Below, one piece after another: positions 2,614-56,260 of a stretch of 64,000 nucleotides of DNA. The notes under the pieces are model-generated. The model ran no database searches. It was given only the letters and a program-made list of their open reading frames with translations, and was not told the origin of the DNA. The DNA comes from a virus: the UHGV virus genome UHGV-0018629, one strand, 5' to 3'. Position numbers and translations under genes: made by a program. Position 1 is the first letter of the stretch, and each line of letters starts with the position of its first letter.

Positions 2614-5600
2614 ATGGCCGAGATTAAAAGAAAGTTCAGAGCGGAAGACGGTCTGGACGCAGGTGGCGATAAAATAATCAACGTAGCTTTAGCTGATCGT
2701 ACCGTAGGAACTGACGGTGTTAACGTTGATTACTTAATTCAAGAAAACACAGTTCAACAATATGATCCAACTCGTGGATATTTAAAAGATTTTGTAATCA
2801 TTTATGATAACCGCTTTTGGGCTGCTATAAATGATATTCCAAAACCAGCAGGAGCTTTTAATAGTGTACGATGGAGAGCGTTACGTACTGATGCAAACTG
2901 GACAACTGTTTCGTCAGGACCTTATCAATTAAAATCAGGCGAATCAATTTCAGTTAACACTGCAGCGGGTAATGACATTACATTTACTTTGCCAACTTCT
3001 CCAATTGATGGAGATACTATCGTTCTTCAAGATATTGGTGGAAAACCTGGAGTTAACCAGGTTTTAATTACAGCTCCGGTACAAAGCATTGTAAACTTCA
3101 GAGGTCAACAAGTACGCTCAGTACTAATGACTCATCCAAAATCACAGATAGTTTTAATTTTTAGTAATCGTCTGTGGCAAATGTATGTTGCTGATTATAG
3201 CAGAGAAGCGGCAGTTGTAACGCCAGCGAGTCTTTATCAAGCGCAATCAAACGATTTTATCGTGCGTAGATTTACTTCTGCTTCAGCAATTAATATTAAA
3301 CTTCCGAGATTTGCTAATCACGGGGATATCATTAATTTCGTTGATTTGGATAAATTAAATCCTCTTTATCATACAATTGTTACTACATATGATGAAACGA
3401 CTTCAGTGCAAGAAGTTGGAACTCATTCCATTGAAGGCCGTACATCTATTGATGGTTTCTTGATGTTTGATGATAATGAGAAACTGTGGAGATTGTTTGA
3501 CGGGGATAGTAAAGCCCGTTTACGTATCATAACGACTAATTCAAACATTCGTCCAAATGAAGAAGTTATGGTATTTGGTGCGAATAATGGAACAACTCAA
3601 ACGATTGAACTTCAGCTTCCGACCGATATTTCCATTGGTGATACTGTTAAAATTTCCATGAATTATATGAGAAAAGGACAAACAGTTAAAATCAAAGCTG
3701 CCGGTGAAGATAAAATTGCTTCTTCAGTTCAATTGCTGCAATTCCCAAAACGTTCAGAATATCCGCCTGAAACTAAATGGGTGACTGTTCAAGAATTAGT
3801 TTTTAATGGTGAAACCAATTATGTTCCAGTTTTACAGCTTGCTTATATCGAAGATTCTGATGGAAAATATTGGGTTGTACAGCAAAACGTTCCAACTGTA
3901 GAAAGAGTAGACTCTTTAAATAATTCTACCAGAGCAAGATTAGGCGTAATTGCTTTAGCTACACAGGCTCAAGCTAATGCAGATTTAGAAAATTCTCCAC
4001 AAAAAGAATTAGCAATTACTCCAGAAACGTTAGCTAATCGTACTGCTACAGAAACTCGTAGAGGTATTGCAAGAATAGCAACAACTGCACAAGTTAACCA
4101 GGATACTACATTCTCTTTTGCAGATGACCTTATCATCACTCCTAAAAAGCTGAATGAAAGAACTGCTACAGAAACTCGCAGGGGTGTCGCTGAAATTGCT
4201 ACGCAGCAGGAAACTAACACAGGTACTGATGATACTACAATCATCACTCCTAAAAAGCTTCAAGCTCGACAAGGTTCTGAATCATTATCTGGTATTGTAA
4301 CCTTTGTATCTACTGCAGGAGCTACTCCAGCTTCTAGTCGTGAATTAAATGGTACAAATGTTTATAATAAAAACACTAATAATTTAGTTGTTTCGCCTAA
4401 AGCACTGGATCAATATAAAGCTACTCCAACGCAACAAGGTGCGGTAATTTTAGCAGTTGAAAGTGAAGTAATTGCTGGACAAAGCCAAGAAGGATGGGCA
4501 AATGCGGTTGTAACGCCAGAAACGTTACATAAAAAGACATCAACTGATGGAAGAATTGGTTTAATTGAAATTGCTACGCAAAGTGAAGTTAATACAGGAA
4601 CTGATTATACTCGTGCAGTCACTCCTAAAACTTTAAATGACCGTAAAGCAACTGAAAGTTTAAGTGGTATAGCTGAAATTGCTACACAAGTTGAATTCGA
4701 CGCAGGCGTCGACGATACTCGTATCTCTACACCATTAAAAATTAAAACCAGATTTAATAGTACTGATCGTACTTCTGTTGTTGCTCTATCTGGATTAGTT
4801 GAATCAGGAACTCTCTGGGACCATTATACCCTTAATATTCTTGAAGCAAATGAGACACAGCGTGGTACACTTCGTGTGGCTACACAAGTTGAAGCTGCTG
4901 CAGGAACATTAGATAATGTTCTAATAACTCCTAAAAAGCTTTTAGGTACTAAATCTACTGAAGCGCAAGAAGGCGTTATTAAAGTTGCAACTCAGGTTGA
5001 AACTGTAGCTGGAACGTCAGCAAATACTGCTGTATCTCCAAAAAATTTAAAATGGATTGTACAGAGTGAACCTACTTGGGCAGCAACTACTTTGGTAAGA
5101 GGTTTTGTTAAAACTTCATCTGGTTCAATTACATTCGTTGGTAATGATACCGTTGGTTCAACACAGTCATTAGAATTATACGAAAAAAATAGCTATGCAG
5201 TATCGCCATATGAATTAAACCGTGTATTAGCAAATTATTTGCCGTTAAAAGCAAAAGCTGCAGATAGTAATTTATTAGATGGTCTAGATTCATCTCAGTT
5301 CATTCGTAGGGATATTGCGCAGACGGTTAATGGTTCACTAACCTTAACCCAACAAACGAATCTGAGTGCCCCTCTTGTATCATCTAGTACTGCTACGTTT
5401 GGTGGGTCAGTTTCAGCAAATAGTACATTAACTATTTCTAATACTGGAACAGCAACTCGATTGATTTTTGAGAAAGGACCTCAAACTGGAACAAACCCAG
5501 CTCAAACGATGACTGTTAGAGTGTGGGGAAATCAATTTAGTGGGGAATCAGACACAACACGTTCTACCGTATTTGAAGTTAGTGATGAAACATCTAGTCA

Positions 5601-6483
5601 TTTTTATTCACAGCGCAATAAAGCCGGAAATATAACATTTAATATCAACGGTACAGTAACTCCGATAAATGTTAATGCTTCAGGAACATTGAATGCAAAT
5701 GGTGCAGCAACATTTGGTAATTCAGTTACTGCAAGCGGTGAAATTATTTCTCGAAGCGCGAATGCTTTCCGTGCTATTAACGGAAATTATGGTTTCATTG
5801 TTCGCAATGACGGATCAGTAACGAATTTTATGCTTACTGCATCAGGTGATCAGACTGGTGGATTTAATGGATTACGCCCATTAGCTATTAATAATGCATC
5901 TGGTCAAGTAACGATTGGTGAAAGCTTAATAATCGCCAAAGGTGCTACTATAAATTCAGGTGGTTTGACTGTTAACTCGAGAATTCGTTCTCAAGGTACT
6001 AAAACTTCTGATTTATATACCCGTGCGCCAACATCTGATACTGTAGGATTCTGGTCAATCGATATTAACGATTCAGCCACTTATAACCAATTCCCAGGTT
6101 ATTTTAAAATGGTTGAAAAAACTAATGAAGTGACTGGGCTTCCGTACTTAGAACGTGGCGAAGAAGTTAAATCTCCTGGTACATTAACTCAGTTTGGTAA
6201 CACACTTGATTCACTTTACCAAGATTGGATTACTTATCCAATAACTCCAGAAGCACGTACCACTCGCTGGACGCGTACATGGCAGAAAACCAAAAACTCT
6301 TGGTCAAGTTTTGTTCAGGTATTTGATGGAGGTAACCCTCCACAACCATCTGATATTGGTGCTTTACCATCTGATAATGCTACAATGGGGAATCTTACTA
6401 TTCGTGATTTCTTACGAATTGGTAATGTTCGCATTATTCCTGACCCAGTGAATAAAACTGTTAAATTTGAATGGGTTGAATAA
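2614..6483 (+). CDS. 34: long tail fibre proximal subunit gp34
   Basis: 1289-aa ORF (same length as T4 gp34), ATG with SD, position after rnh; repeat-rich fibre protein. Confidence 0.92.
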   Translation: MAEIKRKFRAEDGLDAGGDKIINVALADRTVGTDGVNVDYLIQENTVQQYDPTRGYLKDFVIIYDNRFWAAINDIPKPAGAFNSVRWRALRTDANWTTVSSGPYQLKSGESISVNTAAGNDITFTLPTSPIDGDTIVLQDIGGKPGVNQVLITAPVQSIVNFRGQQVRSVLMTHPKSQIVLIFSNRLWQMYVADYSREAAVVTPASLYQAQSNDFIVRRFTSASAINIKLPRFANHGDIINFVDLDKLNPLYHTIVTTYDETTSVQEVGTHSIEGRTSIDGFLMFDDNEKLWRLFDGDSKARLRIITTNSNIRPNEEVMVFGANNGTTQTIELQLPTDISIGDTVKISMNYMRKGQTVKIKAAGEDKIASSVQLLQFPKRSEYPPETKWVTVQELVFNGETNYVPVLQLAYIEDSDGKYWVVQQNVPTVERVDSLNNSTRARLGVIALATQAQANADLENSPQKELAITPETLANRTATETRRGIARIATTAQVNQDTTFSFADDLIITPKKLNERTATETRRGVAEIATQQETNTGTDDTTIITPKKLQARQGSESLSGIVTFVSTAGATPASSRELNGTNVYNKNTNNLVVSPKALDQYKATPTQQGAVILAVESEVIAGQSQEGWANAVVTPETLHKKTSTDGRIGLIEIATQSEVNTGTDYTRAVTPKTLNDRKATESLSGIAEIATQVEFDAGVDDTRISTPLKIKTRFNSTDRTSVVALSGLVESGTLWDHYTLNILEANETQRGTLRVATQVEAAAGTLDNVLITPKKLLGTKSTEAQEGVIKVATQVETVAGTSANTAVSPKNLKWIVQSEPTWAATTLVRGFVKTSSGSITFVGNDTVGSTQSLELYEKNSYAVSPYELNRVLANYLPLKAKAADSNLLDGLDSSQFIRRDIAQTVNGSLTLTQQTNLSAPLVSSSTATFGGSVSANSTLTISNTGTATRLIFEKGPQTGTNPAQTMTVRVWGNQFSGESDTTRSTVFEVSDETSSHFYSQRNKAGNITFNINGTVTPINVNASGTLNANGAATFGNSVTASGEIISRSANAFRAINGNYGFIVRNDGSVTNFMLTASGDQTGGFNGLRPLAINNASGQVTIGESLIIAKGATINSGGLTVNSRIRSQGTKTSDLYTRAPTSDTVGFWSIDINDSATYNQFPGYFKMVEKTNEVTGLPYLERGEEVKSPGTLTQFGNTLDSLYQDWITYPITPEARTTRWTRTWQKTKNSWSSFVQVFDGGNPPQPSDIGALPSDNATMGNLTIRDFLRIGNVRIIPDPVNKTVKFEWVE
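3990..5060 (+). repeat. degenerate tandem ~35-40 aa fibre repeats inside gene 34 (ITPxxL..RTATETRRG..IATQ.E.N.GTDDT)
   Basis: At least 8 successive units visible in the gp34 translation; nucleotide copies e.g. actgctacagaaactcg at ~4040 and ~4160. Confidence 0.6.
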
Positions 6484-6491
6484 GAGGTATT

Positions 6492-7607
6492 ATGGAAAAA
6501 TTTATGGCAAAGTTTGGACAAGGATACGTCCAAACGCCATTTTTATCGGAAAGCAATTCAGTAAGATATAAAATAAGCATAGCGGGTTCTTGCCCGCTTT
6601 CTACTGCAGGACCATACGTTAAATTTCAAGATAATCCTGTAGGAAGTCAAACATTTAGTGCAGGTCTTCATTTAAGAGTTTTTGACCCTTCCACGGGAGC
6701 ATTGGTTGATAGTAAGTCATATGCTTTTTCTACTTCAAATGATACAACATCTGCTGCTTTCGTTAGTTTCATGAATTCTTTTTCAAACAATAGACTTGTT
6801 GCTATATTAACTAGCGGAAAGGTTAATTTTCCTCCTGAAGTAGTATCATGGTTAAGAACAGCAGGAACATCTGCTTTTCCATCTGATTCTATATTGTCAA
6901 GATTTGATGTATCATATGCTGCTTTTTACACTTCTTCTAAAAGAGCTATTGCATTAGAGCATGTTAAACTGAGTAACAGAAAAAGCACAGATGACTATCA
7001 AACTATATTAGATGTAGTATTTGATAGTTTAGAAGATGTTGGAGCGACAGGATTTCCTAAAAGAACATATGAAAGCGTTGAGCAATTTATGTCAGCTGTT
7101 GGTGGAACTAATAACGAAATTGCGCGTTTACCAACTTCATCCGCGATAAGTAAACTTTCTGACTACAATTTAATTCCTGGAGATGTGCTTTATCTTAAAG
7201 CACAACTATATGCTGATGCTGATTTACTTGCTCTTGGAACTACGAATATATCCATTCGATTTTATAATGCATCAAATGGATATATTTCCTCAACACATGC
7301 TGAGTTTACTGGACAAGCTGGGTCTTGGGAATTAAAAGAAGATTATGTAGTTGTTCCTGAAAATGCAGTAGGATTTACGATATACGCACAGAGAACTGCA
7401 CAAGCGGGTCAAGGCGGTATGAGAAATTTAAGCTTTTCTGAAGTGTCAAGAAATGGCGGCATTTCAAAACCTGCTGAATTTGGCGTCAATGGTATTCGAG
7501 TTAATTATATCTGCGAATCTGCTTCACCTCCGGATATAATAGTACTTCCTACGCAAGCATCGTCTAAAACTGGTAAAGTGTTTGGACAAGAATTTAGAGA
7601 AGTTTAA
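6492..7607 (+). CDS. 35: long tail fibre hinge connector gp35
   Basis: 371-aa ORF MEKFMAKFGQGYVQTPFLSESNSVRYKISIAG..., immediately after gene 34. Confidence 0.9.
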   Translation: MEKFMAKFGQGYVQTPFLSESNSVRYKISIAGSCPLSTAGPYVKFQDNPVGSQTFSAGLHLRVFDPSTGALVDSKSYAFSTSNDTTSAAFVSFMNSFSNNRLVAILTSGKVNFPPEVVSWLRTAGTSAFPSDSILSRFDVSYAAFYTSSKRAIALEHVKLSNRKSTDDYQTILDVVFDSLEDVGATGFPKRTYESVEQFMSAVGGTNNEIARLPTSSAISKLSDYNLIPGDVLYLKAQLYADADLLALGTTNISIRFYNASNGYISSTHAEFTGQAGSWELKEDYVVVPENAVGFTIYAQRTAQAGQGGMRNLSFSEVSRNGGISKPAEFGVNGIRVNYICESASPPDIIVLPTQASSKTGKVFGQEFREV

Positions 7608-40876: not shown

Positions 40877-41221
40877 TTAAAAGAATTTAAATTTTTTCTT
40901 TGACCTTTTATTAAATGCATCTTGTAGTTGCATTGTAATACATTTTTCTACATGAGGAGCTAACTCAGCTTTTCTTTCTTGGTCAAGAACAGCAAAGTCC
41001 ATTACAACCTTTCCATCAACCCAATCCAGTTTAGTTACATACACTATATGTGTAGAACCATCTTCTAGTTTAATGACAATCTCCTGGATAACATTTTCCA
41101 TAGCGGATTTAATTATCTTAAGAGATTCATTAAAAAGACGTTCTTTTCTTTCTTCTTCCCCCTCCGAAGAGGGGGATTCATCGATAATTTCTAGATCTAA
41201 ATCTAAATCATCTTTATTCAT
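40877..41221 (-). CDS. 40: head vertex assembly chaperone gp40
   Basis: ORF-track start 41239 is GTG; ATG at 41221 gives 114 aa MNKDDLDLDLEIIDESPSSEGEEERKERLF... Confidence 0.7.
   Translation of the reverse strand: MNKDDLDLDLEIIDESPSSEGEEERKERLFNESLKIIKSAMENVIQEIVIKLEDGSTHIVYVTKLDWVDGKVVMDFAVLDQERKAELAPHVEKCITMQLQDAFNKRSKKKFKFF
41158..41175 (-). promoter_or_regulatory. GC-rich tetraloop hairpin inside gene 40 coding sequence
   Basis: CCCCCUC-UUCG-GAGGGGG, perfect 7-bp stem, encodes ESPSSEGEE. Confidence 0.3.
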
Positions 41222-42395
41222 TAAATTCTTCCATATCACTTAACTGATCTAGGTCAGTTTCTAAATCAGCTGCTGATTTACTTTTACTTTCTGGAGATTT
41301 AAATTTTTCAACTTTTGAGTTAATCAATTCGTCAACTTCAGCTTCAATAATTTCATTACTATCAATAGCACCTAACTGATAAGCACGTTTAATAGCATCT
41401 CGGAACGGTTGATGCTTAAATAAAGGACCCCAGAATGTAGTGCAATTGGTATCTTTTGCACGCCAAGATTTTTCTTCGCGAATCATCTCGCCGGTTTCTT
41501 CATCAAGAAATTCACGAGCATACCAGCCATTTTTTGGTTTTACCACAAATCCTAATTCAAGAGCCATATCTAACAATCCAGAATAAGGATCGATACCACC
41601 GTCAAATTTAACATCAATAAAGAATTTACTTTTTTCTTTAACGGTACGAGATTTTTCTACATTTAGAACAAATTGATACCCCTGAAGATCAGAACCATCT
41701 TTAATCTGACGCTTACCGATAATGAATACAGTATCAGCCGAATACATTACGCCTGTACCACCTGTCATCACGGTTTTACTAAACATTTCAATTGTTTCAA
41801 TTGTATGGTTAACCGCAACGCATGGAATATTTTTAATGCTAAAATAAGGAGTAACAATACGGAATAATGACTTCAGCGATTTAGCACGAGTCATATCTGC
41901 CACAGATTTTTCATTCAAGGCATCTTCCGTTTCTTTCTTAGAAGCCATATTACCGATTGAGTCGATGAATACAATGACCTTTTCACCACGCTCAATAGCT
42001 TCAAGCTGATTCACCATATCAATTTTCAGTTGTTCAACTGACTGAATTGGTGTATGAATTACTCGTTCCGGGTCAACTCCCATGGATCGCAAATAAGCTG
42101 GAGTAATACCAAATTCGCTATCATAGAATAGACATACCGCGTCAGGATATTTGTTCAAATACGCCGCAACCATAGTCAAAGACATATTTGATTTAAAGTG
42201 TTTAGAAGGACCTGCAAAAATGGTTAAACCAGACTGCATACCACCATCAATCGCACCAGAAATAGCGATATTAAGCATTGGGATTTTTGTACGGATTACA
42301 TCCTTTTCATTAAAGAATTTAGATGTAGTCAGTTCAGCAGTCATTTTAGAAGTGGAAGCTTTAATCAAACGGGATTTTAAATCTGCAATAGACAT
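41214..42395 (-). CDS. uvsX: recombinase UvsX (RecA-like)
   Basis: 393-aa ORF MSIADLKSRLIKASTSKMTAELTTSKFFNEK... with Walker A GPSKHFKS; T4 UvsX is 391 aa. Confidence 0.92.
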   Translation of the reverse strand: MSIADLKSRLIKASTSKMTAELTTSKFFNEKDVIRTKIPMLNIAISGAIDGGMQSGLTIFAGPSKHFKSNMSLTMVAAYLNKYPDAVCLFYDSEFGITPAYLRSMGVDPERVIHTPIQSVEQLKIDMVNQLEAIERGEKVIVFIDSIGNMASKKETEDALNEKSVADMTRAKSLKSLFRIVTPYFSIKNIPCVAVNHTIETIEMFSKTVMTGGTGVMYSADTVFIIGKRQIKDGSDLQGYQFVLNVEKSRTVKEKSKFFIDVKFDGGIDPYSGLLDMALELGFVVKPKNGWYAREFLDEETGEMIREEKSWRAKDTNCTTFWGPLFKHQPFRDAIKRAYQLGAIDSNEIIEAEVDELINSKVEKFKSPESKSKSAADLETDLDQLSDMEEFNE

Positions 42396-42472
42396 TCATT
42401 TTTTCCATAGGCATCATTATATTTTCCTCACGGGTTAAAGATAGAGTAATTATAACACAATAAATTTAGGCA

Positions 42473-43321
42473 TTAATCAACTGCTATTGGATGAATAGCA
42501 TTAAACTTATGAAACGCTTCTGATTTTTCTTTGCGCGAAACACACATGCGAAGAACTTTTAATGGCTCGTCTTCTTCACCCAACGATTTTCTCTTTTCGA
42601 TATTCGATGTTTTCCAACGAGCTTGCTCTGGAAACTCTCTGTTGATTTGCTCAAGAGCTCTATTATGTTTTGAATTACTACGAATTGAACTACATCCGCC
42701 AGGAGCTTGCGCTTTTCCAGATACAACCAGATATTTGAACAAGGCCAAATGCGGATAACCTTGATTAATTAAATTGAGAAATGCATACATGTCTTCGCAT
42801 AAATCAATTTTTCCATACCCAATTTGTTCTGTTGTAAGTTTTCCAAGGTCATACCACGTATTCGTGAATCCATATGAATTTTCACGATAATTACCCCAAG
42901 ATGAAGTAATTTTAAAAATTGGTAGACGAGCATGGCCGTGATAATATCCACAATCCATAGCATCTTCAACGTATTGAATCAATTCGTAGAATTGTTCACG
43001 GGTTAATTGATTGACTTTATCTACACAGCGACGATCATCTTTCTTTCGCATTGAGCTCATACGAATCGTAGTATCATCGTCAATCATCCAGATTCGTTGA
43101 CCTGCATACATATCAGTAATTGCTTTACGAGTACCGGCAATTCCGTTTACATCATCAGGAATAGTTATAATTTTAGCTCTAAACCCATAGGCGTCATAAT
43201 AAGCTTTTTCTTCGTGTTCACGTACTACAATATGGGGTTCATAATCACTCGGAAACATATCAAGGGCAGAAACTGCCCCGACACGCTGATAACTTGGAAT
43301 TACGAATTGAATCATTTCCAC
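42473..43321 (-). CDS. glycosyltransferase-like protein (DxD motif) at the locus where T4 has beta-gt; candidate second-step hmC glucosyltransferase of T2/T6 type
   Basis: 282-aa ORF MEMIQFVIPSYQRVGAVSALDM...IWMIDDDTTI...; not 351 aa like T4 beta-gt. Confidence 0.55.
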   Translation of the reverse strand: MEMIQFVIPSYQRVGAVSALDMFPSDYEPHIVVREHEEKAYYDAYGFRAKIITIPDDVNGIAGTRKAITDMYAGQRIWMIDDDTTIRMSSMRKKDDRRCVDKVNQLTREQFYELIQYVEDAMDCGYYHGHARLPIFKITSSWGNYRENSYGFTNTWYDLGKLTTEQIGYGKIDLCEDMYAFLNLINQGYPHLALFKYLVVSGKAQAPGGCSSIRSNSKHNRALEQINREFPEQARWKTSNIEKRKSLGEEDEPLKVLRMCVSRKEKSEAFHKFNAIHPIAVD

Positions 43322-44052
43322 TCACCGTTATAATCTTTTTTCACAATATGAGTTTCGCCAGTATTCCACCAATGATCAACCAAGTAAAAATGACGAGAAT
43401 ATACATGAAGACTTCCAACATTCCATATAATAGAACCTGCTTTATACTGACGAGTTGAATCGCCTGCATTCAAATCAGATACTAATTTATCTAATACGTA
43501 TTTTTGCCATGCATAATCATTGCGGAATCCGAAGACCACGTCATTTGAGCGCATGCTTACTACTGCATTGACTTTCTTATCACGAACCAGGTACTGTACT
43601 GTATTCGTACACATGAAATCTGACATACCATCTTTATTGTAGTCAAACTGCATAGATGGACGAGTATAAATCATAATGCCACGTCGAGAATCAGGATTTT
43701 GACCAAGTTCAGCTAAGCACATATCATACTGGGCATAGTTATCTTCTGACCAAATAGCCCAACCATAATTCGAGTTAATTTCGCCTTTAGAAGATGCTAC
43801 TTGTTGCCAAATCTTTGGTGTTTCACCTGGAATATCTTTAACAAACAGACTTTGAGACTTGTACCATTCAAGTTCACGCTGAATGTATTCGTCATTAAGA
43901 GCACCAAAAATAAAGGGTTCATCTGCTACAAATGATGCGCCAATAATTTCAATAGTTTTAACACCAGTTTTATCAATTACGAAATCTTTTTCCTTTAATG
44001 CAAGTCCTAAATGAAGACGGATTTCTTCAACTGTCATAGAGTCATTAATCAT
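43312..44052 (-). CDS. 42: dCMP hydroxymethylase gp42
   Basis: 246-aa thymidylate-synthase-like ORF MINDSMTVEEIRLHLGLALKEKDFVIDKTGVKTIEIIGASF...; same length as T4 gp42. Confidence 0.9.
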   Translation of the reverse strand: MINDSMTVEEIRLHLGLALKEKDFVIDKTGVKTIEIIGASFVADEPFIFGALNDEYIQRELEWYKSQSLFVKDIPGETPKIWQQVASSKGEINSNYGWAIWSEDNYAQYDMCLAELGQNPDSRRGIMIYTRPSMQFDYNKDGMSDFMCTNTVQYLVRDKKVNAVVSMRSNDVVFGFRNDYAWQKYVLDKLVSDLNAGDSTRQYKAGSIIWNVGSLHVYSRHFYLVDHWWNTGETHIVKKDYNGEWK

Positions 44053-44059
44053 TTAAACC

Positions 44060-44209
44060 TCAATTGATGCATTCATATTTAAATTGTAACAGTAATAAAC
44101 CCCACCCTATAATAAGAGTTGGAATCATAACAGGAACTGTTACGCTATAGTATATACTTATTATAACCATCAGGATTAAAAGCAACACTGCTATAATTTT
44201 GCTTTTCAT
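44060..44209 (-). CDS. hypothetical small membrane protein (49 aa)
   Basis: Unlisted ORF MKSKIIAVLLLILMVIISIYYSVTVPVMIPTLIIGWGLLLLQFKYECIN; ATG overlaps imm stop (ATGA). Confidence 0.4.
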   Translation of the reverse strand: MKSKIIAVLLLILMVIISIYYSVTVPVMIPTLIIGWGLLLLQFKYECIN

Positions 44210-44457
44210 TCTTTCTCTCTGATGATAATTACTTGATTTTGCTGTGCAGATTTTTTAGTTTCACCAGCAATTGACCAAATAAAGGTAATAAACCAACCAA
44301 TAATTGACCAGTTAAACAGTAAAGATGTGAAAAAGATTCCTACTGTCGATTTTGACCCGCGCATCAAGGCGATGAACCACGGAAGCATGTATATAATAAT
44401 AGCCAACACGCCTGAAACTAAAACCATAAAAATTGAACCTGCTACTAAAGTTTCCAT
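44206..44457 (-). CDS. imm: Imm superinfection immunity membrane protein
   Basis: 83-aa ORF METLVAGSIFMVLVSGVLAIIIYMLPWFIALMRGSKSTVGIFFTSLLFNWSIIGWFITFIWS...; matches T4 Imm. Confidence 0.85.
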   Translation of the reverse strand: METLVAGSIFMVLVSGVLAIIIYMLPWFIALMRGSKSTVGIFFTSLLFNWSIIGWFITFIWSIAGETKKSAQQNQVIIIREKE

Positions 44458-53077: not shown

Positions 53078-53264
53078 TATCTAAAATGTTGAAGTTAAAA
53101 GATACAGCCCAGTCAGTGCAGACCGTAACCTTTTTAATACAATTATCTTCAACCTCTAGCGGTTCAAACCAGTATTCAATAATATCTTTATGACCAATAT
53201 CATCTTTTACTTCGCATTCAAAATGCTGACTCATCATAACATTTTTAAATTCATCAAAAGTCAT
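53001..53264 (-). CDS. hypothetical protein (46.2-like position, 87 aa)
   Basis: ORF MTFDEFKNVMMSQHFECEVKDDIGHKDIIEYWFEPLEVEDNCIKKVTVCTDWAVSFNF... Confidence 0.45.
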   Translation of the reverse strand: MTFDEFKNVMMSQHFECEVKDDIGHKDIIEYWFEPLEVEDNCIKKVTVCTDWAVSFNFNILDNDTPKSLRDMAVSCIKDAYCEVFDI

Positions 53265-54280
53265 TGTGTTGCCTCTACATATAACTGATTTGCATATTGA
53301 ATAAGTGCTTCACGGTCAGAATCAGTGATGTCTGGAATTGCATTAATATACTCTTCCATCAACGTCTGAAGCGATTGAACTTCAACTTCTTCACTATCAT
53401 CTGACTCGACAGAGTTATCAATCTTTGACACAACTCGTAATGAATGCACAACTTTTTCTAGTTCAGATTCGAACTTCGTCAGATTTTTGTCTACCTCAGT
53501 TACTATAACACGTACTGATAGATTTGTAAAATCTTTATAGTCAATTTTTCCCTTAAATGGATATTGAATTCGACGATGCCAGGTAGTGTTGTTTGGAATA
53601 AATTCCATTCGTTCTGTTTCTGTGTCAAACATCCAGAACCCGCGAGGGTCATTCTCGTCACCTGCAGTTAGTGTCCATGGTGTCCCAATATACTTGACGT
53701 TTGCAGCCTCAGAAATAGTATGGAAGTGACCAGACCACACCTCTTTATAAGTCTTAAGGAAATCAGGCTCAAGACCGTGAGATTTCATTCCTTTATAAAA
53801 ATAAAATCCATTCAGTTCCCAGTGACCGACGCAAAAAGAAGCAGATGAAGTTTTGATATGCTCAAGAATTTCACCAGTATTTTCTTCGCACATCCAAGGA
53901 ATCAAATCAATCAAACATCCGTCAAAATCTACTGTAGTAGGCTTATCATATACTTTAACATTAGGATATTTAGCCAAAAGCTCAGTAGAAGCATTTGGAT
54001 GCATTACATTTTTGTAGTGGAGATCGTGATTTCCTACAATAGTATGTAATGTGATTCCAGCATCATCAAGCATTTGAACTATTTCACGAGCGAACTCCAT
54101 AGTTTTATGTGTGATTGCTTTTCGCACATCAAAAATATCACCATATTGAATCCATACAGTAATTCCATTTTTCTTAGAATATTCTATCGCTTGCTTAATT
54201 CCATCAATTTGAATACCGCGAATCCACTCATCATCAGCTTTAACGCCTAAATGCCAATCACCCAAGTTTAGTATTTTCAT
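53261..54280 (-). CDS. 47: recombination nuclease subunit gp47 (Mre11/SbcD-like phosphoesterase)
   Basis: 339-aa ORF MKILNLGDWHLG...GNHD...GHFH motifs; same length as T4 gp47. Confidence 0.92.
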   Translation of the reverse strand: MKILNLGDWHLGVKADDEWIRGIQIDGIKQAIEYSKKNGITVWIQYGDIFDVRKAITHKTMEFAREIVQMLDDAGITLHTIVGNHDLHYKNVMHPNASTELLAKYPNVKVYDKPTTVDFDGCLIDLIPWMCEENTGEILEHIKTSSASFCVGHWELNGFYFYKGMKSHGLEPDFLKTYKEVWSGHFHTISEAANVKYIGTPWTLTAGDENDPRGFWMFDTETERMEFIPNNTTWHRRIQYPFKGKIDYKDFTNLSVRVIVTEVDKNLTKFESELEKVVHSLRVVSKIDNSVESDDSEEVEVQSLQTLMEEYINAIPDITDSDREALIQYANQLYVEATQ

Positions 54281-54881
54281 GGTGTCTTTTCCATCCTAAT
54301 TTAGCTGCTTTTGAAACCAGTTCTTTAATTTTTCCTTTTGTCCATTCAGGACCAGGAGGTTCATGACATAACAATTGCTTAACTCCGTTATTATACCATT
54401 TTTTACCTTTATTATGTGATGAAGCTTTAAATTTATTTGACCTTCCTTTTACATAACCTTCTGGAATATAAGGCAAAAAGGCAGATTTTCCTGTTAATGG
54501 ATCATGTGAATGTATATTTCCTTTACAATTATGAGAACCATATAATGGATGATTTTGTCCTTTATTATCTCTTCCAAATGAACCTTTTGGAGCAGCATAT
54601 GACATATTAAAGAATAATGGATTTTTAACTGCATCATGCAATCGTTGATAATATAACTCGCATTTAATAGCTTCTTCACGCGTATCAAATTCAGCTAAAA
54701 TGCATGAATCAAATAAGTGAGGATTATCTAAAAGCTCTTTATTATAAATTTTCTTATACTTTTTAGATAAAACTGAACCATGATATCCAGCTAAATGCCT
54801 ATCTAAAGACGTAGATCCAATATAAAAAGGAGGAAGTTTATCTCCACTATATATTGTTAAATAAGTTATATATTTTTTCAT
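54258..54881 (-). CDS. GIY-YIG homing endonuclease-like protein with NUMOD-like C-terminal DNA-binding repeats
   Basis: 207-aa ORF MKKYITYLTIYSGDKLPPFYIGSTS...SCILAEF...E...; C-terminal GQNHPLYGSHN and KGKKWYNNG repeats; I-TevI/Seg-like architecture. Confidence 0.6.
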   Translation of the reverse strand: MKKYITYLTIYSGDKLPPFYIGSTSLDRHLAGYHGSVLSKKYKKIYNKELLDNPHLFDSCILAEFDTREEAIKCELYYQRLHDAVKNPLFFNMSYAAPKGSFGRDNKGQNHPLYGSHNCKGNIHSHDPLTGKSAFLPYIPEGYVKGRSNKFKASSHNKGKKWYNNGVKQLLCHEPPGPEWTKGKIKELVSKAAKLGWKRHHENTKLG

Positions 54882-55057: not shown

Positions 55058-56260
55058 TTATTTTGTAATAATGTCAAACTGTTCTTTAAAGCAGAAGCTT
55101 GAATCTTGATGCTGATACAAAAATTCATAAGCTTTTTCACGTTCACGGTCATAAAGAGCTCGGTCAGATGACAGTTCTTTAATTCGTTCAAATGTTGATT
55201 CCATGTCGTTTTCATCAAACCAAACGATACCGCTATCATGCGAAATTAACGGAGTATTATCAACACGGAATTTTAAATTTTCGCCAGTAGATTTCCAAAA
55301 TACCGGAATTGTTCCGCATGCGCCAAGCTCGAGATGAGTATATTCTAAAGAACGTTGTAGATATTTTTTGTCCAACTTACTCAACTGATAGCCAAATCCG
55401 GATTTACTCATGCGTTCAAGCATTTCGCTATTTACATAACGGTCAAGAATTTGCGTTGGCAAATTAGGAGCAATTTTAATTTGGTCTACTTGATGAAGAC
55501 GATAATATTCGTATGGAATTCCTTTTTCTTTAATAGGAATGAACGCTGGAGAACGTTCCAGACCTTCCATAATAGTACTTAGCCCAGCAGGTTTAAGATG
55601 TTTTTCGTGGAAATCAAACATCTGATAAAAACCTTTCCATGTAGTCGTACGACCAATCCAACGGTTGATATTCATGTTAATTTCAGAAACATCTTTCCAG
55701 TAGGTTGATCGAACCTTCGCAATATCCATAGGAGGCTGAAAGTTGTATACGGTCGGTGCTTCTTCAATATCATCAAACAGAGAAACAGTTTCTGGATACC
55801 ACTCTTTCATCAGAACTTTATTAAAATCACCATTATCAGAATGACTAAAAATAACATCAGCTCGACGAACAGTTTCTTCTAATCCCAAATTTCGACGCAA
55901 AGAAAGAGAAGAATGGTCATGTTGATAAACTACAACACGAACCGAAGGTTTAATGTTATCAATAATTTTTTTATAGTTATTAATCGTATCTTCTTCAACT
56001 GAAGTAGCAGGAACTGAATTGATAATTAGAATATCACAATCATTTACCAGCTTAAGTGTTTTATCATATTCTTTTGCCAATAAAACCGGAATTGAAAATG
56101 ATTTATAATCATGCGCACAGTTACGAGTAAATGATTTATCTTTAGCATAAACCAAAGTTACTTCATGACCATTTTTAATAAACCAATCACGTTGCTCAAG
56201 AGAAAATTTAGTTACACCGCAACCTTCAAGACCCCGAGCCATAAAAATGCATACTTTCAT
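55058..56260 (-). CDS. a-gt: DNA alpha-glucosyltransferase
   Basis: 400-aa ORF MKVCIFMARGLEGCGVTKFSLEQRDWFIKNGHEVTLVYAKDK...; same length as T4 alpha-gt. Confidence 0.9.
   Translation of the reverse strand: MKVCIFMARGLEGCGVTKFSLEQRDWFIKNGHEVTLVYAKDKSFTRNCAHDYKSFSIPVLLAKEYDKTLKLVNDCDILIINSVPATSVEEDTINNYKKIIDNIKPSVRVVVYQHDHSSLSLRRNLGLEETVRRADVIFSHSDNGDFNKVLMKEWYPETVSLFDDIEEAPTVYNFQPPMDIAKVRSTYWKDVSEINMNINRWIGRTTTWKGFYQMFDFHEKHLKPAGLSTIMEGLERSPAFIPIKEKGIPYEYYRLHQVDQIKIAPNLPTQILDRYVNSEMLERMSKSGFGYQLSKLDKKYLQRSLEYTHLELGACGTIPVFWKSTGENLKFRVDNTPLISHDSGIVWFDENDMESTFERIKELSSDRALYDREREKAYEFLYQHQDSSFCFKEQFDIITK

Follow-up and report, generated by a model that had tools for sequence, protein, structure and literature searches.

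In T-even phages, gp42 makes hydroxymethyl-dCMP, hydroxymethylcytosine (hmC) replaces cytosine in the DNA, and the enzyme alpha-gt adds alpha-linked glucose to it. Between uvsX and gene 42, T4 carries the 351-aa beta-glucosyltransferase beta-gt. The locus described here, part of a 64,000-nucleotide stretch of a virus genome (the window), raises the question of which enzyme takes this slot in its place. An open reading frame on the minus strand was confirmed there at 42473..43321, encoding 282 aa when counted from the first possible start (GTG, 43321), and its protein contains the sequence IWMIDDDTTI. The original prediction had interpreted this protein as a GT-A type glycosyltransferase with a DxD motif and, together with an alpha-gt gene downstream, as part of a T2/T6-style hmC modification system.

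The comparison with sequence collections leaves us highly confident that the gene encodes a T2/T6-type beta-glucosyl-HMC-alpha-glucosyltransferase (ba-gt, also ggt or TAGT). Of its 280 residues, 275 are identical to T2 ba-gt over the full length (98%), and the full-length identity to the T6 protein is likewise 98%. PHROG 842, 'beta-glucosyl-HMC-alpha-glucosyltransferase', is matched with an E-value of 2.5e-88 over residues 2-277. The Pfam family PF20691 (TAGT, TET-associated glycosyltransferase) is matched with 37.9 bits at a curated gathering threshold of 27.5 bits, residues 5-209 aligning to profile positions 2-205 of 205, while NCBIfam offers no model for the protein. A tblastn search of 50,697 phage records identified a homologue in 689 of them, 472 with at least 95% identity; the latter are nearly all Tequatrovirus, and very often the gene is annotated there as beta-glucosyl-HMC-alpha-glucosyltransferase. 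The DNA of the surrounding 4 kb shows 96.4% identity to that of phage T6, in which the gene goes by the name ggt; the window as a whole reaches ~96% with many Tequatrovirus genomes, and no genome of the collection matches it exactly. The codon differences from T2 ba-gt, 42 synonymous and only five non-synonymous, show purifying selection on the gene.

The surroundings of the gene are in agreement with this assignment (Table 1). The order uvsX, ba-gt, gene 42 is common to the window, T6, T2, EL, Geo, Solly, and RB33. The gene 42 product is ~97% identical to T4/T6 gp42, and 420 phage records contain the alpha-gt of the window at 99% identity or above. With full-length orthology to the T2/T6 proteins, the location between uvsX and gene 42, and the co-occurrence with alpha-gt and dCMP hydroxymethylase, the gene belongs to the ba-gt orthologues, and both the T2/T6-style system and the downstream alpha-gt of the original prediction are borne out. 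Between gene 47 (53261..54280) and alpha-gt lies a 207-aa HNH homing-endonuclease ORF at 54258..54881 on the minus strand (PHROG 10820, E 8e-94), which shares ~20 nt with the beginning of gene 47 and probably represents an inserted mobile element of a kind common in T-even genomes.

Table 1. Coordinates of the ba-gt gene, its sequence motifs, and associated genes in the window.
Feature	Position	Strand	Remarks
uvsX, synteny-defining flank	41214..42395	-	PF21134 / PF00154 (RecA)
ba-gt / ggt / TAGT CDS	42473..43315	-	280 aa + stop; PHROG 842, PF20691, identity to T2 ba-gt
E174-D175	42791..42796	-	D175 in 65/65, E174 in 50/65 sequences; start of helix 174-184
DDD (DxD motif), residues 79-81	43073..43081	-	conserved; directly after strand 74-78 of the model
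IPSYQR, residues 6-11	43283..43300	-	R11 in 65/65 sequences; corresponds to 'IPTYNR', the nucleotide-binding signature of GT2
ATGA, overlap of gene 42 stop and ba-gt start	43312..43315	-	GGTGAG 8 nt upstream
gene 42, dCMP hydroxymethylase, hmC precursor	43312..44052	-	PF00303, thymidylate-synthase fold
alpha-gt, DNA alpha-glucosyltransferase, supplies the alpha-glucosyl-hmC acceptor	55058..56260	-	PF11440, E 2.4e-236

The length of the protein had to be corrected, as the ATG at 43315 is more likely to be the start codon than GTG 43321, which leads to a product of 280 aa. This ATG is located two codons 3' of the GTG, follows the GGTGAG sequence at a distance of 8 nt, and matches the annotated start in T2, RB33, EL, Geo, and Solly (843 nt, 280 aa). 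It shares the tetranucleotide ATGA with the stop codon of gene 42, an arrangement likewise annotated in these five phages, and the overlap is a probable translational coupling of gene 42 and ba-gt. Scans of the region 42300..44300 returned 11 promoter-like sites with 9.2 expected in shuffled sequence and one terminator-like site with 0.8 expected, in neither case an excess; a search of the whole 64-kb window with Rfam at gathering thresholds gave no match. The sole terminator-like match of the region, at chance level, is a GC-rich hairpin of 7 bp (GGGGCAG TTT CTGCCCT), ahead of a T-rich stretch, at 43263..43279 on the minus strand, within codons 13-18 of ba-gt; it is kept in T2 and T6. Two antisense ORFs within ba-gt, at 42531..42758 and 43097..43333 on the plus strand, are without support.

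To identify the residues that define the family, we used an alignment of 65 diverse TAGT representatives with a mean column identity of 23%. Residues R11, D80, D175, G186, and G207 are invariant, and D79 (63 of 65 sequences), D81 (64 of 65), I6, P7, R63, G206, and R212 are nearly so. The window copy keeps all five invariant residues and also D79, D81, R63, and R212. A DDD triplet by itself is weak evidence, as it arises by chance in 7% of shuffles of the ba-gt protein, and in 0.2% if four hydrophobic residues are to precede it; its meaning comes from the conservation of the three aspartates across the family. The family profile aligns IPSY-x-R...DDD to IPTYNR...LDDDD of the GT2-type enzyme AvpGT (9jma). 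Based on this conservation and by analogy to GT2 enzymes, we infer that DDD binds a divalent metal and the diphosphate of UDP-glucose. The IPSYxR loop and DDD would together hold the UDP-sugar via a divalent cation, the DxD motif being the one indication of this metal dependence. In the reaction of an inverting GT-A enzyme, D175, found where helix 174-184 starts, would presumably serve as the general base in catalysis.

The fold was predicted with AlphaFold2 from 11 homologues, yielding a model with a mean pLDDT of 77.9 and a pTM of 0.81 that is poor in the loops 89-101 and 132-149. In this model, DDD follows strand beta4, formed by residues 74-78. A Foldseek search against the PDB resulted in 215 matches at E ≤1e-3; the top ones were all of GT-A/GT2-type or nucleotidyltransferase fold, and GT-B enzymes were absent among them. 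WrtF, AvpGT, the chondroitin polymerase K4CP, RmlT, TarP, and TarS were the best matches with E-values of 4e-7 to 5e-5, the TM-scores to solved GT-A enzymes being only ~0.5. Among the predicted viral structures of BFVD, the best match was ba-gt of the Klebsiella phage PKO111 with a TM-score of 0.87, followed by TAGT proteins. Sequence searches of the PDB, both with the single protein and with the 65-sequence profile, revealed no solved family member; the profile gave nothing beyond a weak match of the N-terminal part to AvpGT (E 0.038), consistent with the fold search. Model and sequence support ba-gt as a GT-A fold glycosyltransferase, a single Rossmann-like alpha/beta/alpha domain with the DxD motif after beta4, in line with the original prediction. 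The published description, in which ba-gt is equated with the Pfam family TAGT, likewise gives a GT-A fold by AlphaFold3, finds no similarity to alpha-gt and beta-gt, and treats TAGT as a separate phage family that is sister to GT2 (PMC13216743).

The resemblance to bacterial GT2-type GT-A enzymes, namely AvpGT (9jma/9jn3), WrtF (9om*), TarP (6h4m), and K4CP (2z86), comprises the Rossmann-like fold, the inverting mechanism, the N-terminal IP(S/T)Y-x-R sequence, and the DxD motif after beta4. However, the identity to these proteins amounts to 10-14% at a TM-score of ~0.5, and their acceptors are lipid-linked or wall glycans, whereas ba-gt acts on a sugar on duplex DNA.

In the proposed pathway, gp42 would make hydroxymethyl-dCMP, leading to phage DNA with hmC for C, and the GT-B enzyme alpha-gt would move glucose from UDP-glucose onto hmC in alpha linkage. 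The 280-aa GT-A enzyme ba-gt would then use UDP-glucose once more to attach another glucose at the 6-OH of the alpha-linked one. This transfer would proceed with inversion, since UDP-alpha-D-glucose is the donor and the product contains a beta linkage. The product would be beta-1,6-glucosyl-alpha-glucosyl-hmC, or gentiobiosyl-hmC, the same modification that ba-gt forms in T2 and T6 by adding the second glucose in beta-1,6 linkage (PMC6024577, PMC13216743). Based on our analysis, the virion DNA of the window phage should almost certainly be T6-like, containing hmC, alpha-glucosyl-hmC, and gentiobiosyl-hmC, and no beta-glucosyl-hmC. Bare hmC would be expected to account for roughly one quarter to one third, with the remainder mostly gentiobiosyl-hmC. 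The exact diglucosylation ratio of this phage cannot be predicted from the gene sequence, because the extent varies among phages with near-identical ba-gt genes, from 5% in T2 over ~40% in EL and Geo to ~70% in T6 and Solly.

Published experiments on close relatives define what such a gene does. Cloning and sequencing of ba-gt from T2 and T6 go back to Winkler and Rueger (1993, as cited in PMC11946311). In T6 with a deletion of ba-gt, gentiobiosyl-hmC is gone and alpha-glucosyl-hmC alone is present; the phage becomes more sensitive to Brig1, and its DNA is now a Brig1 substrate (PMC11078745). In a further study, BapA treatment freed glucose from T6 delta-g-gt DNA, but not from wild-type T6 DNA (bioRxiv 10.64898/2026.02.25.707755). 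Diglucosylation protects the DNA against enzymes that read mono-alpha-glucosyl-hmC, such as the Brig1 glycosylase. In natural Tequatrovirus isolates with alpha-gt and TAGT, HPLC-MS detected hmdC, alpha-glucosyl-hmdC, and alpha-gentiobiosyl-hmdC, and no beta-glucosyl-hmdC; in phage Solly, gentiobiosyl-hmC made up about two thirds (PMC13390438). The combination of alpha-gt and TAGT is the majority state in Tequatrovirus, while the combination of alpha-gt and beta-gt found in T4 is rare (PMC13216743).

The location of the gene could also point to a diverged T4 beta-glucosyltransferase (GT-B, PF09198), which would put a single beta-glucose directly on hmC, but the shared slot between uvsX and gene 42 is all that speaks for it. 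The best BLASTP E-value against T4 beta-gt is 2.2, PF09198 is not matched, the protein has 280 instead of 351 aa, and the model resembles GT-A and not GT-B enzymes. A tblastn search with T4 beta-gt against the 64-kb window, taken from a genome of ~167 kb, reached a best E-value of 3.0, and the syntenic slot in it is taken by ba-gt. Moreover, the HPLC-MS data on related phages with ba-gt show no beta-glucosyl-hmC (PMC13390438). Sequence and fold matches refute a T4-type identity, as the original prediction had anticipated, and we assign it virtually no probability. The two enzymes do have the slot in the genome, the UDP-glucose donor, the inverting beta linkage, and a role in DNA hypermodification in common, and the synteny of ba-gt with T4 beta-gt has already been described (PMC13390438). 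Yet they are unrelated in sequence and fold (T4 beta-gt, PDB 1JG7), and differ in their acceptor, which is hmC itself for T4 beta-gt and the glucose of alpha-glucosyl-hmC for ba-gt.

Within the TAGT family, an enzyme with a chemistry unlike that of T2/T6 ba-gt, using another sugar donor or acting directly on hmC, is conceivable, as the family is large and functionally unexplored, with 2263 representatives at E ≤1e-3 in an exhaustive profile search. In many phages, a TAGT occurs with neither alpha-gt nor beta-gt beside it (PMC13216743), and such 'solitary' TAGTs may act on hmC; in addition, the window allele carries three private substitutions. These, however, are located at variable columns of the family alignment, and they are the only residues that differ from ba-gt of Solly, whose DNA has been measured. 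Together with the high identity to the T2/T6 enzyme, which has been characterised genetically, and the presence of the acceptor-making alpha-gt, conserved almost without change in hundreds of relatives, this makes a different chemistry very unlikely. An inactive, decaying gene, which would leave the DNA with only mono-alpha-glucosyl-hmC, could be suspected in view of the ba-gt lesions in sequenced phage stocks that are detailed below. But the reading frame of the window copy is intact, all invariant residues are kept, and synonymous changes far outnumber non-synonymous ones in the comparison with T2, so that a remnant appears extremely improbable. A functional ba-gt of the T2/T6 type is hence the reading that we retain.

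The window copy and the genes of T2 and T6 agree in length, in the uvsX-gene 42 locus, in the ATGA coupling, in the alpha-gt partner, and in the invariant motifs, while T2 and T6 lack the private substitutions of the window, T23S, S45F, and R92K, which are regarded as conservative. In the records of these two classical reference phages, each ba-gt is changed at an invariant or nearly invariant position of the family. T2 ba-gt (NC_054931; 4260-5102 of the compared segment) contains R11H, a change of CGT to CAT at the codon corresponding to 43283..43285 of the window; Arg11 is kept in the window and in natural isolates. The exact T2 allele of the 5' segment, including R11H, was found in only 8 of the 443 records that carry this segment, namely all T2 records, seven in number, and SV76. 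A single base separates T2 from the nearest alleles in this segment; in RB33, the one that was checked, it is the base that turns CGT into CAT. In the T6 record MH550421 (1974-2816 of the compared segment), codon 10 is changed from CAG to the amber codon TAG, and the annotated ORF restarts at Met20 with 261 aa. In the second T6 record, NC_054907 (GenBank parent AP018814; 1674-2513 of the compared segment), the DDD motif is short of one Asp codon, resulting in 279 aa; its protein YP_010067197.1 served as the TAGT reference in PMC13216743. Neither the amber codon nor the shortened DDD is present in the window, and both could have arisen by mutation in the stocks or by error in sequencing. In the record of T4 strain 147, an unannotated 225-aa ORF resembling GIY-YIG-type homing endonucleases was observed between uvsX and beta-gt (4185-4862 of the compared segment), and the beta-gt CDS is also missing from its feature table.

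The R11H exchange could be related to the low gentiobiosyl-hmC content of T2 (5% vs 72% in T6); in the literature cited here, we found no statement of R11H as its cause. EL and Geo (3760-4602 and 5869-6711 of the compared segments) have seven ba-gt substitutions in common, I50V, M89I, R95K, C97R, V101I, A202S, and Q203H, that are absent from the window and from Solly, whose pattern is T6-like. Their diglucosylation is intermediate, with a hmC : glucosyl : gentiobiosyl ratio of ~1:2:2 by HPLC-MS. It is tempting to assume that allelic variation of ba-gt sets the diglucosylated share of Tequatrovirus genomes, with R11H and the EL/Geo haplotype as causal changes and the window in the high-activity class of T6 and Solly; we regard this as a tentative and rather doubtful proposal. 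If true, it would concern the gene family, and would not make the window itself unusual.

The gene is thus an ordinary and fully described feature of these phages, and nothing about it is biologically new, since the T6 deletion, the GT-A prediction, the synteny with T4, and the HPLC-MS analysis of near-identical isolates have all been published. The original prediction was a correct re-discovery of a gene that had already been named, cloned, and genetically tested, and published work bears out the relevance for host defence that it raised (PMC11078745, PMC13216743). The expected T6-like hypermodification of hmC predicts how the phage would respond to McrBC, to type IV restriction of the GmrSD/BrxU type, to Brig1, and to CRISPR-Cas, and this prediction is useful for host-range prediction and for the choice of phages in therapy.
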